Virus record (IMG/VR): IMGVR_UViG_3300028888_000006
Span: 1 to 64,000 of that record
Strand: one strand, 5' to 3'
DNA length: 64,000 nucleotides
From: a virus
Lineage: Duplodnaviria > Caudoviricetes
Position numbers and translations under genes: made by a program. Under the pieces are notes generated by a model that was not told where the DNA came from, ran no database searches, and worked only from the letters and a program-made list of their open reading frames with translations. Of this stretch, positions 5,396-55,051 are shown in pieces; positions within the stretch are counted from its first letter, which is position 1, and every line of letters begins with the position of its first letter.

Positions 5396-5594
5396 AACAA
5401 CCGAACAGTCCATGTACACAATCATGCGTGAGATGGACCTCAAAACTAAACTTATCGTTTCAATTGACAGCTGGACGCTGGCAAGAAATTATGCATTAAT
5501 TCTCGAGAAAGATTTTGGTGTCAAGTTTCGAGTCAGAAGAATGCAGACAAGAAATACGAAAAGAAACTTCATTCTTGTCGAGCGCATCCGTTAA
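5382..5594 (+). CDS. small basic protein, possible DNA-binding protein or excisionase
   Basis: 70 aa with Arg/Lys-rich C-terminus; convergent with and overlapping the integrase 3' end. Confidence 0.5.
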   Translation: MKEIETTEQSMYTIMREMDLKTKLIVSIDSWTLARNYALILEKDFGVKFRVRRMQTRNTKRNFILVERIR

Positions 5595-6804
5595 CAAAGT
5601 CTATAACCGTTCTATTGGCAGCATCCACGGCCTGCTGATTGAATTTGACATATATGAGGGTGGTCCTATTTCCCGATGAATGCCCGAGTGCCTGTGAGAT
5701 GACATCCAACGGGACACCCGCTTCATAGGCAAAGGTGGCCCAGCAATGGCGTGCGTAGTAGGTGGAGATTCCCGGAATGACGGGCTTGACGGTTTTTATT
5801 AGTCGTGGTGTACCGAACAGGTCCTCGGGGTCCGGGACCATCTCCACCACTTCCTCGCCTATCATCTTCAGGTGGTCGTTCATTTCGTGGGCGAAACTTT
5901 TATAGTGTTTGCATCCATCCATCGCCATAAGGAGATAGTTACTGCCCTTGTATCTTTTCAGGAGTTCCTCGGCTTCCGGTTCTATCCGGATCGAATATTT
6001 CTTGTGCGTCTTCTCGCGGATATACTCGAGGCGTCCGTTTACTAAATTACCCTTGCGAGCCAATAACAGGTCCTTGGAGTTGATTCCGATGAGATAAAAC
6101 ATGAGGAGGAAGTAGTCTCGGAACATTGCGTTCCTTCCGGATGCCGGATAGTCGAGGAACTTTCTGAAGAGTTCCACCGATACGCTCCGTTTCCTTGTCG
6201 GTTCCTGCCTGATGGAGAAGTTCTGGAACGGATAGGACGAGATGACATTCGTGTGCAGTGCGTAGTTGCACACCGCCCGGAGACTCCGGAGATAAATTGC
6301 CCGACCATTCACCCCCTGAGTCTTCGCCAAAAACATCTCGAACTGATGAAGCCATTTCAAATTTATGTTTTCCATCTTCAGTGCCTTACCTCCGAACGCA
6401 AGCACTTTCGCGAGAGTCGTACGATAGATTTCTTTCGTTCCCTCCGTAATATCGGTCGCAAGATATTCCGCAAACAAATCTGAAACAAGATGAACTGGTT
6501 GAATAACTTTCTTTTCCGTTATCGCCTGCTTGATTTGTGGGGCCGTCATTGAATCGAATTTATCATCTATGGATAGATAGGCAATAGACTTATCGATGGA
6601 TGATTTCTTCTCTGTTAATCTTGCATTAATAGCATCACAACCGGCTACACGAACAACATGATTACCATCCCATTCATTCGGCTTTACGCGAATACCGGTA
6701 GGAATCATAGCCGTAGTCCGATTATGATAGATAGTGATGACGATGCTTCCTTTCCCGTCCTTCGCCTTCCCGCGAAGATCCAGGTAAAACCTTGTTGTTG
6801 CCAT
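5569..6804 (-). CDS. int: tyrosine recombinase / phage integrase (Bacteroidota type: arm-binding, SAM-like and catalytic domains)
   Basis: N-terminal FYLDLRG..KDGK..I.I.I.HN...IPTGI.V...EW arm domain; catalytic GIN.KD, YIREKT, TYYARHCWAT, ALGHS, TTLIY. ATG 6804 lies just downstream of a TAnnTTTG promoter. Confidence 0.93.
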   Translation of the reverse strand: MATTRFYLDLRGKAKDGKGSIVITIYHNRTTAMIPTGIRVKPNEWDGNHVVRVAGCDAINARLTEKKSSIDKSIAYLSIDDKFDSMTAPQIKQAITEKKVIQPVHLVSDLFAEYLATDITEGTKEIYRTTLAKVLAFGGKALKMENINLKWLHQFEMFLAKTQGVNGRAIYLRSLRAVCNYALHTNVISSYPFQNFSIRQEPTRKRSVSVELFRKFLDYPASGRNAMFRDYFLLMFYLIGINSKDLLLARKGNLVNGRLEYIREKTHKKYSIRIEPEAEELLKRYKGSNYLLMAMDGCKHYKSFAHEMNDHLKMIGEEVVEMVPDPEDLFGTPRLIKTVKPVIPGISTYYARHCWATFAYEAGVPLDVISQALGHSSGNRTTLIYVKFNQQAVDAANRTVIDFVNGCARQE

Positions 6805-6820
6805 ATTGCGTGTGTTTGGA

Positions 6821-6828
6821 CAAATATA
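6821..6828 (-). promoter_or_regulatory. Bacteroidota primary-sigma -7 element (TATATTTG) for int
   Basis: Matches TAnnTTTG, 17 nt upstream of the int ATG. Confidence 0.65.
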
Positions 6829-6837
6829 TAAATTTGT

Positions 6838-7079
6838 CTGCAAACAATTCCGCATAGCGTCATATGAGCCTGGAAGATGGATGTAGAAACAAAAATCCCG
6901 ATACTCAAGGTAATGAAACTAATCAAATGCTTGAATATCAGGACTTTACGATGTGGAGATAAGGGGATTCGAACCCCTGACCCCCTGCTTGCAAAGCAGT
7001 AGAACTCTCCGCTTAATCACATGACAGTCACATAAATACGAAACCGCAGAAATTATCCTGCAAAATATTCTGCAAAATG
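6838..7079 (+). repeat. candidate integrase arm-type sites, CYGCA(A/G/T)A direct repeats flanking attP
   Basis: CTGCAAAC 6838 and CCGCATAG 6850 on one side; CCGCAGAA 7044, CTGCAAAA 7058 and CTGCAAAA 7070 on the other; 12-14 bp spacing. Confidence 0.55.
6954..6999 (-). other. attP core: 3' half of tRNA-Ala(UGC)
   Basis: Minus strand CTGCTTTGCAAGCAGGGGGTCAGGGGTTCGAATCCCCTTATCTCCA comprises the anticodon arm (TGC), T-arm (GGTTCGAATCC) and acceptor 3' strand with U70/A73. No D-arm or 5' acceptor strand upstream; 150 bp from int. Confidence 0.88.
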
Positions 7080-52606: not shown

Positions 52607-55051
52607 CTATTTCTTTGTTCCTGTTCCTCTTGTCCGTGCGATTTGCTTCTGGGCTTCGATCTTCTTAAGCTCGATTTCCTTCTTATCTTTTCGCTCGTCA
52701 TCCTTGGCTCGTAACTCTCTGTCGAACTGTCTGATAGATTCAGCAAGTTTCTCTCTTTCGATATCAAGTTTTTCATGGACTAACTGTTCGTCGTTTTCCT
52801 CTGCATAAATACCAAGACGGAGATACTCTGCCTGGGAGTTGATTTCCGCGACACGGATCTTGGTCTCGTTGTCGCGCTGGTTGAGCGTATCCTTCTGCTG
52901 CATCTCGGCCATCTTCGCCTGCTGTTCAGCCTGGATCTTCTGCTGCTCGATCTGCATCTGCTGCTGCTGGGCTTCCTGCTGCTGCTGCTGAATATCCTTC
53001 TCGGATTTCTCCAGAATTCGCACTTTCTCCTGCATGGAAGTGGAAGAATACATGCGAAGAAGTGCAGAGAACCGCGCACCATTCTGTGCCATCGCCTGTG
53101 CAATTGTCTCAATCTGGGATGACAGTTTTTGCGTATCCTGAGAGTTGTCAACCACGAGGCCATAATCGGACTCGCAGAACTCGTCGCCGTCTATCTCCAT
53201 AATCTTACGGGAATAGTCGGAAAGGATATACTGGAACTTCTTGCTTCTTCCACGGAGAGAAGCCTTCGCATATTCGATGAAGCACTCGATGACGCGTCTC
53301 TTGGTGTCGTCATGCTTCTGGAAAAGCCAGTCTGTGATATAGGAGGACTGAAGGACGGCACGCTCGATGCCGCCAACCGTTTCTCGGTTATAAGTATTGC
53401 CCTCCCGCTGACGATTGATGCCGACTAGATCGGACATGGAATCCTTAGTCCACTGGAGCAGTTCAATGTAATTCTGAATGGATTGACCCCAGTCGGCATC
53501 GATATATCCCTTGCTCGCATTGTTCAGACCACCGGCAAGTTTACCGGTAGCCGCGCCCTTGTTACCTTCGTTAAAGGAGTCCTTGATGAGAACCTTGTTG
53601 GACCGGGCAAAGTAAAGCCACTTCTCAACCTCCCAGTTCTTCGGTTTCATCGCAAGATCCATCTCGAGCAACTTGCCCCAGTTCGTGGCGATAAGGTCCA
53701 CGAGTTTCGCATGGATGGCGTCGTACATATAATTGTACGGCTTCATCATGTCTATAAGGGAATACGGCTTGGACTCGTTGAGATTGTAGATAGTGCCGAC
53801 GATACCGAAGTGGCATCTCGACGGATTGGAAATTGAATTGTGCTGTACAAGGCAAGGACGCATTCCGATATAGATATCCTCACCGATCTTCGTGCCTTCC
53901 CATGCTTCATTAACCCAAAGCACCGTTGCCTCCTCTCCGGAATCCTTGTCAGGGATATAGGTCTCGGGATAGAAATCGAAGACTTCCTCGCCGGTTACGG
54001 GGTCGAAGGACTTGACCTTGTATATCTTTCTCTTGGATTTCCACCAGACATGGATGACGCGGACATTTCCGGCGACATCATACGGAAGAAGGTCGGAACC
54101 TATCGTTCCGCTCAGTTCCGGGAACGCATCGTAGACGAACTCGAGATTGTTACCCTCAACCCAGATACCGTTCTCGCCGGTGATTCTACCGACGAAAGGA
54201 TATGCGTCATTGATAGCGCCCTCGGCTGTAGTAGGAGATGCTCCACCGAATTCCGGAAGGTCATCAGAAAGTTTCTTGATATCGCTCGGGCTCAGCTCAT
54301 CATAATAGAGCTCGACGATCTTTCCGCGAGAAATGTAGTCTTCGTATATAATGACATCCGCATCCTCGACACGATTGGAATAACCGCTGCCGAAGATGCG
54401 AAGTTTGATGGGGTTGAGCCGTTTCAGGAACGGTTCTCCACCCGCAATGCCGCACTGATATATCTCACTGCCAAGACAAGCGTCAACAAAACCATCATTA
54501 AAAGTCTGTTTGAAATTGAGTTCCTTCGAATAATGATGGATGAGTTCGTTCGCACGAATCTCACGCAGGTCCTGCCAGTTATAATCATAGTATTCCTGGC
54601 CTTCCTGAATCTGCTTCTGAGCCTGCTGATCATCGATGGACTGATCCTCGACGATACCCTGCACCATCTGGAAAAACTCCTGCTTCTTGTCTTCCTCTAT
54701 CTGAGAGATGGAATAAGGGTTGGTGACGATGACATGCCAGTCGAAAACGCGTGCGGCTTCCTCACCACGGAGCGTGTTTATCTTGGAGTTGATGATTGGA
54801 TAATGCTGAATCTTGTCAGGAATGAACGCTGAGGCGATATTCCCAGGATTCAGCACTGCGGCTATGTCTTCCATGTGAATGACGCCATTCAGAAAATCGT
54901 AGTTGATCTTCATGCTGACGGCGCTCTTTCTCACCGGAGAGTAATTGAAATATGTCCTATTACATCCCCAGTCCACATTCTTCTTTCTCCAGGAATCGTT
55001 CTTCGCCCTGAAGGATAGCTTCTGGTTGGGGAATGTTGCTCCTAAATCCAT
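52607..55051 (-). CDS. portal protein
   Basis: 814 aa; FPNQKL...K...W, HYPII.SKI..L.GEE, W.NEAWEGTKIG, SLIDMMKPY, GINRQREG; follows TerL. Confidence 0.92.
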   Translation of the reverse strand: MDLGATFPNQKLSFRAKNDSWRKKNVDWGCNRTYFNYSPVRKSAVSMKINYDFLNGVIHMEDIAAVLNPGNIASAFIPDKIQHYPIINSKINTLRGEEAARVFDWHVIVTNPYSISQIEEDKKQEFFQMVQGIVEDQSIDDQQAQKQIQEGQEYYDYNWQDLREIRANELIHHYSKELNFKQTFNDGFVDACLGSEIYQCGIAGGEPFLKRLNPIKLRIFGSGYSNRVEDADVIIYEDYISRGKIVELYYDELSPSDIKKLSDDLPEFGGASPTTAEGAINDAYPFVGRITGENGIWVEGNNLEFVYDAFPELSGTIGSDLLPYDVAGNVRVIHVWWKSKRKIYKVKSFDPVTGEEVFDFYPETYIPDKDSGEEATVLWVNEAWEGTKIGEDIYIGMRPCLVQHNSISNPSRCHFGIVGTIYNLNESKPYSLIDMMKPYNYMYDAIHAKLVDLIATNWGKLLEMDLAMKPKNWEVEKWLYFARSNKVLIKDSFNEGNKGAATGKLAGGLNNASKGYIDADWGQSIQNYIELLQWTKDSMSDLVGINRQREGNTYNRETVGGIERAVLQSSYITDWLFQKHDDTKRRVIECFIEYAKASLRGRSKKFQYILSDYSRKIMEIDGDEFCESDYGLVVDNSQDTQKLSSQIETIAQAMAQNGARFSALLRMYSSTSMQEKVRILEKSEKDIQQQQQEAQQQQMQIEQQKIQAEQQAKMAEMQQKDTLNQRDNETKIRVAEINSQAEYLRLGIYAEENDEQLVHEKLDIEREKLAESIRQFDRELRAKDDERKDKKEIELKKIEAQKQIARTRGTGTKK

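Follow-up and report, generated by a model that had tools for sequence, protein, structure and literature searches.

A crAss-like phage with a candidate attachment site and a probable tRNA-Ala(UGC) target in small-genome Bacteroidales

The phage genome analysed here carries, beside a tyrosine integrase gene, the 3' end of a tRNA-Ala(UGC) gene. On balance we favor the reading that this is the core of an attachment site (attP) whose target is the tRNA-Ala(UGC) gene of a small-genome genus of Bacteroidales, and not a gene in a 16S–23S spacer. The target is probably linked to rRNA genes in part, because the genes that match the cores of sister phages exactly follow a tRNA-Ile gene, with 16S visible in two cases; a stand-alone twin of the gene is equally possible. 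The window (the whole stretch of 64,000 nucleotides that was analysed) is the first 64 kb of a record of 98,613 bp with direct terminal repeats, and the phage is a complete 98.6-kb crAss-like phage. Its MCP shares approximately 50% identity with the MCPs of Kolpuevirus and of the DAC15-type crAss-like phages of Bacteroides, its portal and terminase belong to crAss-type families, and its virion RNAP-like ORF comprises 3,642 aa. Runs containing the phage are sheep and bovine gut metagenomes.

The elements of the integration module, all on the minus strand, are as follows.

5569..6855, minus strand: tyrosine integrase, heterobivalent, of Bacteroidota type (Pfam and PHROG matches; 621 homologues)
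6833..6858, minus strand: TATGCGGAAT / TTTGCAGAC boxes, candidate arm-type sites of the near (P') arm (sequence; putative function)
6892..6947, minus strand: 18-bp hairpin with U-rich tail, terminator-like (RNA fold -25.2 kcal/mol, z = -5.7)
6953..6999, minus strand: attP core, tRNA-Ala(UGC) positions 28-73 plus one base, 47 nt (sequence, identity to complete genes, conservation in relatives)
6996-6999 and 6985-6988, minus strand: inverted repeat CTGC/GCAG around the anticodon loop (sequence)
6989..6995, minus strand: anticodon loop TTTGCAA, candidate 7-bp crossover (overlap) region (sequence; attR of an island in contig G858:C27)
7041..7080, minus strand: tandem TTTTGCAG(A/G)AT boxes, candidate arm-type integrase sites of the far (P) arm (sequence; putative function)

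The integrase (428 aa) contains Arm-DNA-bind_5, Phage_int_SAM_5 and Phage_integrase domains (PF17293, PF13102, PF00589; phrog_1), and the R..HxxR..Y-type columns are kept in an alignment of its homologues (A1). The listed ORF begins 17 codons before the methionine at residue 18. That methionine (ATG at 6804) is invariant across the 21 homologues of the same alignment, and the 17-codon extension overlaps the candidate arm sites and a TAnnTTTG-like box; on these grounds the true start is probably at 6804 rather than 6855. The closest phage relatives of the integrase belong to temperate phages of Bacteroides. The attP core lies approximately 100 nt upstream of the integrase on the same strand, with NinB and the virion RNAP on one flank of the att–int module and small early genes on the other. 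The presence of phage genes on both sides of the core means that it is seen in the unintegrated attP state, as neither attL nor attR.

The core comprises 46 bases of tRNA-Ala(UGC), from position 28 to A73, at 6954-6999 on the minus strand. Read from 6999 to 6954 it gives the anticodon stem CTGC, the loop TTTGCAA (6995-6989), GCAG, the variable loop, the T arm and the acceptor; the anticodon TGC lies at 6993-6991, the T arm is perfect (AGGGG / TTCGAAT / CCCCT), and the acceptor 3' strand is TATCTCC, with U70 at 6957 and A73 at 6954. The anticodon and the two alanine identity bases reported by the first-pass annotation are thus confirmed. The 5' half of the tRNA is absent, and neither ARAGORN nor Rfam detects a whole tRNA in the window. 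Together with the next base (C), the 46-mer is identical over 47 nt to genuine, complete tRNA-Ala(UGC) genes elsewhere (L002, L005), and the core is kept at the equivalent place in related phages. The match is far beyond chance: this is a real copy of the 3' end of a tRNA gene.

In all relatives the block of identity begins at position 28 or 29, and a symmetric stem surrounds the 7-nt loop; phage cores show compensatory CTGC/GCAG or ATGC/GCAT stems, as do host tRNAs. The crossover is probably in the anticodon loop, the anticodon-loop sublocation that Williams's classification of tRNA integration is said to recognize. The inverted repeat around TTTGCAA, together with repeated TTGCAGA/TGCGGAAT boxes on both sides, leads us to read the region as a putative heterobivalent, lambda-like attP. 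Boxes resembling TTGCAGA/TGCGGAAT surround the core in relatives and are found at the attL of an integrated relative (contig G618:C5, described below), and the TATGCGGAAT / TTTGCAGAC boxes adjoin int in both L045 and G618:C5. The terminator-like hairpin, in the region 6870-6960, starts approximately 7 nt past the copied tRNA end, and inspection by eye reveals an equivalent hairpin and T-run just 3' of the copied tRNA in L012, L014, L042 and L247. Its probable role is to give the tRNA gene rebuilt on integration a terminator brought by the phage.

Which gene is the target? A scan of GTDB with one genome per species returned no exact match to the window's own 46-mer in any Bacteroidota representative; the host gene of identical sequence that the first-pass annotation had proposed to look for was therefore not recovered, and exact Bacteroidales genes were found for sister phages only. 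The sole GTDB match is a 1.5-Mb termite-gut MAG labelled Bacillota (G001), in which the tRNA-Ala gene is stand-alone and encodes CCA, with a phosphoglucomutase gene upstream and a terminator downstream; no 16S or tRNA was found within 6.6 kb upstream of its 23S. In JGI metagenomes the G001 contig and a 10-tRNA array are the only places where a proper D-arm stands ahead of the core. We judged both to be coincidental matches in non-host contexts. Downstream of the tRNA-Ala of G001 (contig G001:C48, L002 1-455), an ORF with an SF3 (RNA_helicase) domain is 5'-open and cut off by the contig end; it may mark the border of a further element in that tRNA. That ORF and the 47-nt exact identity are what could recommend the non-Bacteroidota lineage of G001 as host, a proposal that we consider exceedingly improbable: capsid and integrase alike are of the kind found in Bacteroidota phages, SusD is absent from G001, the phage copy continues CAT where the G001 tRNA encodes CCA, the samples with the phage are from sheep and cattle guts, and among 30 relatives of G001 no match turned up within three mismatches.

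Other searches for carriers were less informative. Complete tRNA-Ala genes with the phage-type acceptor (TATCTCCA) in IMG/VR all lie in tRNA arrays of jumbo phages and were set aside as irrelevant; large phage contigs in that collection (L018-L033), up to 389 kb long, carry long tRNA arrays and a tmRNA gene along with the TATCTCCA-acceptor tRNA-Ala(UGC). In four gut runs the core reaches a depth of thousands-fold from the tRNA-Ala genes of many organisms and Logan contigs break there, and these runs gave no usable att junction. Nothing useful was obtained from PLSDB, which was searched for Bacteroidota records bearing rrn.

We searched 401 genomes of Bacteroidales (the order of Bacteroides genome G032) with an acceptor-anchored pattern, allowing up to two mismatches. 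Ten genomes matched, of which eight have the acceptor ATTCTCCA. All 13 scanned loci of the ATTCTCCA-type genomes are 16S–tRNA-Ile–tRNA-Ala–23S spacers, with five per complete genome. For ordinary Bacteroidales this bears out the premise of the first-pass annotation, namely that tRNA-Ala(UGC) usually lies with tRNA-Ile(GAU) in 16S–23S spacers, Bacteroidota included. It also provides a ground for supposing that attB lies inside such a spacer of a multi-rrn Bacteroidales host, so that the prophage splits one operon and has several identical targets. The spacer copies possess the first 22 bases of the core, the whole anticodon arm included, which might suffice for strand exchange. Against this, they differ from the phage core, in either of its variants (see below), at 6 of 46 bases, the acceptor stem included, and the acceptor strand would mispair in the rebuilt tRNA. 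A phage hairpin after the tRNA end suits a terminal tRNA gene and would be polar on 23S, cutting it off, which argues against a true spacer. In addition, no homologue of the integrase was found in the 401 genomes of the order, and the exact matches of sister phages, to which we now turn, lie in loci without 23S. We regard integration into a canonical spacer as very improbable.

The phage-type acceptor TATCTCCA occurs in just two of the 401 genomes, both members of one family with genomes of 1-3.6 Mb. A tRNA-Ala(UGC) of this type was present in 30 of 151 genomes of that small-genome family, and in 60 of 121 genomes of the genus of G618. The phage cores themselves fall into variants. Variant A, with the T arm AGGGG/CCCCT, is found in the window and in L007/L043; variant B, with the T arm GCCGG/CCGAC, is found in L012 (whose integrase is 94% identical to that of the window), L042, L014 and L016; L044 and L247 have an ATGC/GCAT anticodon stem. 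Variant B is carried by two host contigs (G858:C102 and G925:C11), which share 47-49 contiguous nt with L012, L042, L014 and L016, with as many as 4 identical bases beyond the end of the tRNA. The core of L044 is exact over 48-49 nt in three more (G858:C27, G858:C41 and G934:C10). Variant A of the window is one T-stem base pair away from the tRNAs of six to seven candidate-genus genomes (AGGAG/CTCCT), and has only 24 contiguous bases in common with the closest of these.

The surroundings of the exact-match genes bear directly on the nature of the target. Upstream lie tRNA-Ile and 16S in G925:C11 and G934:C10, and tRNA-Ile in G858:C102 and G858:C27; the upstream sequence of G858:C41 is too short to classify. 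More broadly, 59 loci from the family and genus comprise 38 that are Ile-linked (tRNA-Ile(GAU) 10-300 nt upstream, the 3' end of 16S usually at the contig edge), 13 that are stand-alone (no tRNA-Ile or 16S within 1.4 kb) and 8 that are ambiguous because they lie near a contig end. A 23S gene within 1.4-1.5 kb downstream was found at none of the 59 (by blastn, with Rfam applied to 15 loci, 11 Ile-linked ones among them), and a search for 23S anywhere in five MAGs of the candidate genus gave none. A hairpin and T-run follow the tRNA-Ala directly in Ile-linked and stand-alone loci; stand-alone copies have promoters of TAnnTTTG type. As the MAGs lack 23S, we infer from the sequence downstream of the tRNA, which on some contigs continues for more than 100 kb, that the rRNA genes of the candidate family are unlinked. 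In the family of G038/G618 (L156-L183, L205-L233, L238-L242) the 16S–tRNA-Ile–tRNA-Ala unit ends in an intrinsic terminator, and many genomes carry an identical stand-alone tRNA-Ala(UGC) besides; the other sampled Bacteroidales have the canonical arrangement.

These data divide the proposal that attB lies in an rRNA operon spacer: the sister-phage matches do follow tRNA-Ile, with 16S visible in two of them, and no 23S lies within at least 1.4 kb downstream. The corollary that the phage sits between the 16S and 23S of one rrn copy falls with the latter, given the terminator after tRNA-Ala, and the several identical rrn targets that had been anticipated reduce to about one to three, not one per rrn operon. 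A further alternative holds that the phage uses a stand-alone tRNA-Ala(UGC) exclusively, one that has a promoter and a terminator to itself and is in no way linked to rRNA genes. It draws on the 13 stand-alone copies of the candidate family and genus, on the stand-alone position of the tRNA in the sole genome that carries the 46-mer exactly, and on the integrated relative in G618:C5, which occupies a stand-alone tRNA-Val. Every exact-match sister-phage gene that can be read is nonetheless Ile-linked. Moreover, within one genome the stand-alone and Ile-linked copies have the same sequence (for example in G849), and the integrase could hardly distinguish them. Exclusive use of stand-alone genes is, in our opinion, unlikely.

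A search at E <= 1e-30 identified 621 homologues of the integrase, the best 120 of which are 55-94% identical and nearly all metagenomic. Thirty-five contigs carrying six close homologues all show the free NinB/RNAP–att–int layout, and the relatives in IMG/VR are also in the free NinB–att–int form. The uniformity of this arrangement is the argument for a module that functions without chromosomal integration, as a relic or in dimer resolution or episome maintenance, with the tRNA piece a leftover. We think this very unlikely to be the case. The integrase is intact and is conserved across the 621 homologues; the cores are perfect tRNA copies that track host variants, compensatory stem changes included; and one relative has been assembled in the integrated state. 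Where phages have integrases that are 94% identical and nearly the same flanks, the only difference is a patch in the T arm, which suggests repeated resetting of the core to the tRNA of the local host.

The integrase clade is not confined to alanine. More distant crAss-like relatives have cores derived from tRNA-Val(UAC) (L045), tRNA-Arg(UCU) (G863:C1) and tRNA-Pro(UGG) (L243), so that targets across the clade include Ala, Val, Arg and Pro. G863:C1 (L199-L204; 117,941 bp) is apparently a whole free crAss-like genome, binned with a MAG of the candidate genus. In IMG/VR proviruses of 40-60 kb, integrases that are 38-42% identical stand at the provirus edge, with a complete tRNA-Gly or tRNA-Pro gene approximately 120 nt upstream; this order is the attL layout expected for the integrase family.

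The integrated relative shows this same order. On G618:C5 (L190-L195; 108,567 bp) a complete tRNA-Val(UAC) gene, which has a host promoter, is followed 150 nt on by an integrase 57% identical to that of the window, and then by a replication module (PolA, primase, DnaB-like helicase), an endolysin, TerL, MCP and tail genes to the contig end; TerL and MCP are 71% and 73% identical to their counterparts in the window. On the opposite side of the tRNA are 56 kb of housekeeping genes (alpha-2-macroglobulin, Mur ligase, PPDK, GH2, topoisomerase IV A and Dxs), which also contain a Thr–Tyr–Gly–Thr tRNA cluster. A tblastn search for a portal homologue on the contig returned none. Positions 1-52,300 of G618:C5 belong to an integrated crAss-like prophage, of which the contig holds the attL half, at a stand-alone tRNA-Val(UAC).

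A second insertion involves the tRNA-Ala of sister-phage type itself. Contig G858:C27 (L234-L235; 25,367 bp) carries tRNA-Ile, a complete tRNA-Ala and a 24.8-kb island at 211-25,118 that encodes Ig-like surface proteins (Big_2/Lcl_C), a UvrD helicase, DUF3871 and a SAM_5-type integrase (26% identical). The island ends in a 42-nt direct repeat of the tRNA (attR) that starts exactly at the anticodon loop. An element unrelated to the phage thus uses the Ile-linked tRNA-Ala, with crossover at the loop. The contig begins 98 nt before tRNA-Ile, leaving 16S outside, and holds little beyond the island and its att sites. On a further contig, G925:C11 (L237), a partial tRNA-Ala with an island-type flank is found at 53,601, 12 kb from the complete 16S-linked gene at 65,473-65,546 and in inverted rather than direct orientation; an inversion and a second element are both possible explanations. 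No crAss-like phage integrated at tRNA-Ala was found among the 35 homologue contigs, in IMG/VR, or in approximately 400 family, 400 order and approximately 200 genus genomes. The literature searched on Crassvirales yielded mention of integrases in some members, and none of a tRNA-Ala or rrn-linked attB.

Taken with the arrangement of the candidate hosts, the favored reading, a tRNA-Ala(UGC) target in a small-genome Bacteroidales genus, predicts the following course of events. The integrase would bind the CTGC/GCAG inverted repeat of the anticodon stem and exchange strands within the 7-nt anticodon loop of the host tRNA-Ala(UGC) gene. Positions 28-73, as copied in the phage, and the phage-borne terminator would then rebuild the gene at attL, with int adjoining, and after integration the phage hairpin would replace the host terminator. 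The host would most likely be an uncultured small-genome Bacteroidales genus of ruminant and other animal guts, and the prophage would lie just downstream of a 16S–tRNA-Ile–tRNA-Ala unit or at the stand-alone twin.

A bolder scenario can be built on this reading, one that is possible although the balance leans against it: that this branch of crAss-like phages is truly lysogenic in a Bacteroidales genus with unlinked rRNA genes, at the tRNA-Ala that ends the 16S–tRNA-Ile–tRNA-Ala unit, that attL lies approximately 250-400 bp from 16S, and that its prophages are counted as free phages. If so, assembly of a prophage would give a contig of phage size that retains almost no host flank, and lysogeny in Crassvirales would seem rarer than it really is. 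G858:C27 illustrates how assembly can leave an insert on a contig of its own. The suggestion in the first-pass annotation that such prophages are hidden in assemblies survives on one side of the site, upstream of attL, where contigs break in 16S approximately 250-400 nt away, and not on the other, beyond attR, which runs on freely.

Phages of the crAss-like group are usually treated as non-integrating; attB and its context would yield a host prediction, one animal-gut genus of small-genome Bacteroidales. The context also offers a concrete junction for long reads, and a reason for finding one prophage side at contig edges. The idea of a phage that splits an rrn operon is corrected accordingly: in the likely hosts tRNA-Ala is terminal, and the phage would supply a replacement terminator.

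Several known systems provide points of comparison. The attP of phages with lambda-type heterobivalent tyrosine integrases copies the 3' part of a tRNA gene. The window resembles these systems in the arm-binding N-terminal and catalytic domains of its integrase, in an int gene that adjoins the core, in repeated arm-type boxes on both sides, and in a block of identity that runs from the anticodon stem past the tRNA 3' end; it differs in that the carrier is a crAss-like phage of approximately 100 kb, the likely target ends a 16S–tRNA-Ile–tRNA-Ala unit, and recombination is here a prediction. Temperate Bacteroides phages and proviruses (BS-TP2, Bacuni_F1 and the IMG/VR proviruses at tRNA-Gly and tRNA-Pro) have 36-42% identical integrases and the same order of a complete tRNA followed by int, whereas their genomes are small and of siphovirus type and their targets are other tRNAs, none of them normally rRNA-linked. 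Closer still are G618:C5 and the free relatives with tRNA-Val, tRNA-Arg and tRNA-Pro cores, which belong to the same lineage (MCP 71-73%, TerL 71-73% and int 52-62% identical) and share the att–int layout; these target other tRNAs, and the sole integrated example is at a stand-alone gene. Finally, the exact-match genes resemble the canonical 16S–tRNA-Ile–tRNA-Ala–23S spacer in having 16S and tRNA-Ile upstream, and depart from it in that an intrinsic terminator and ordinary genes come after their tRNA-Ala, in place of 23S.
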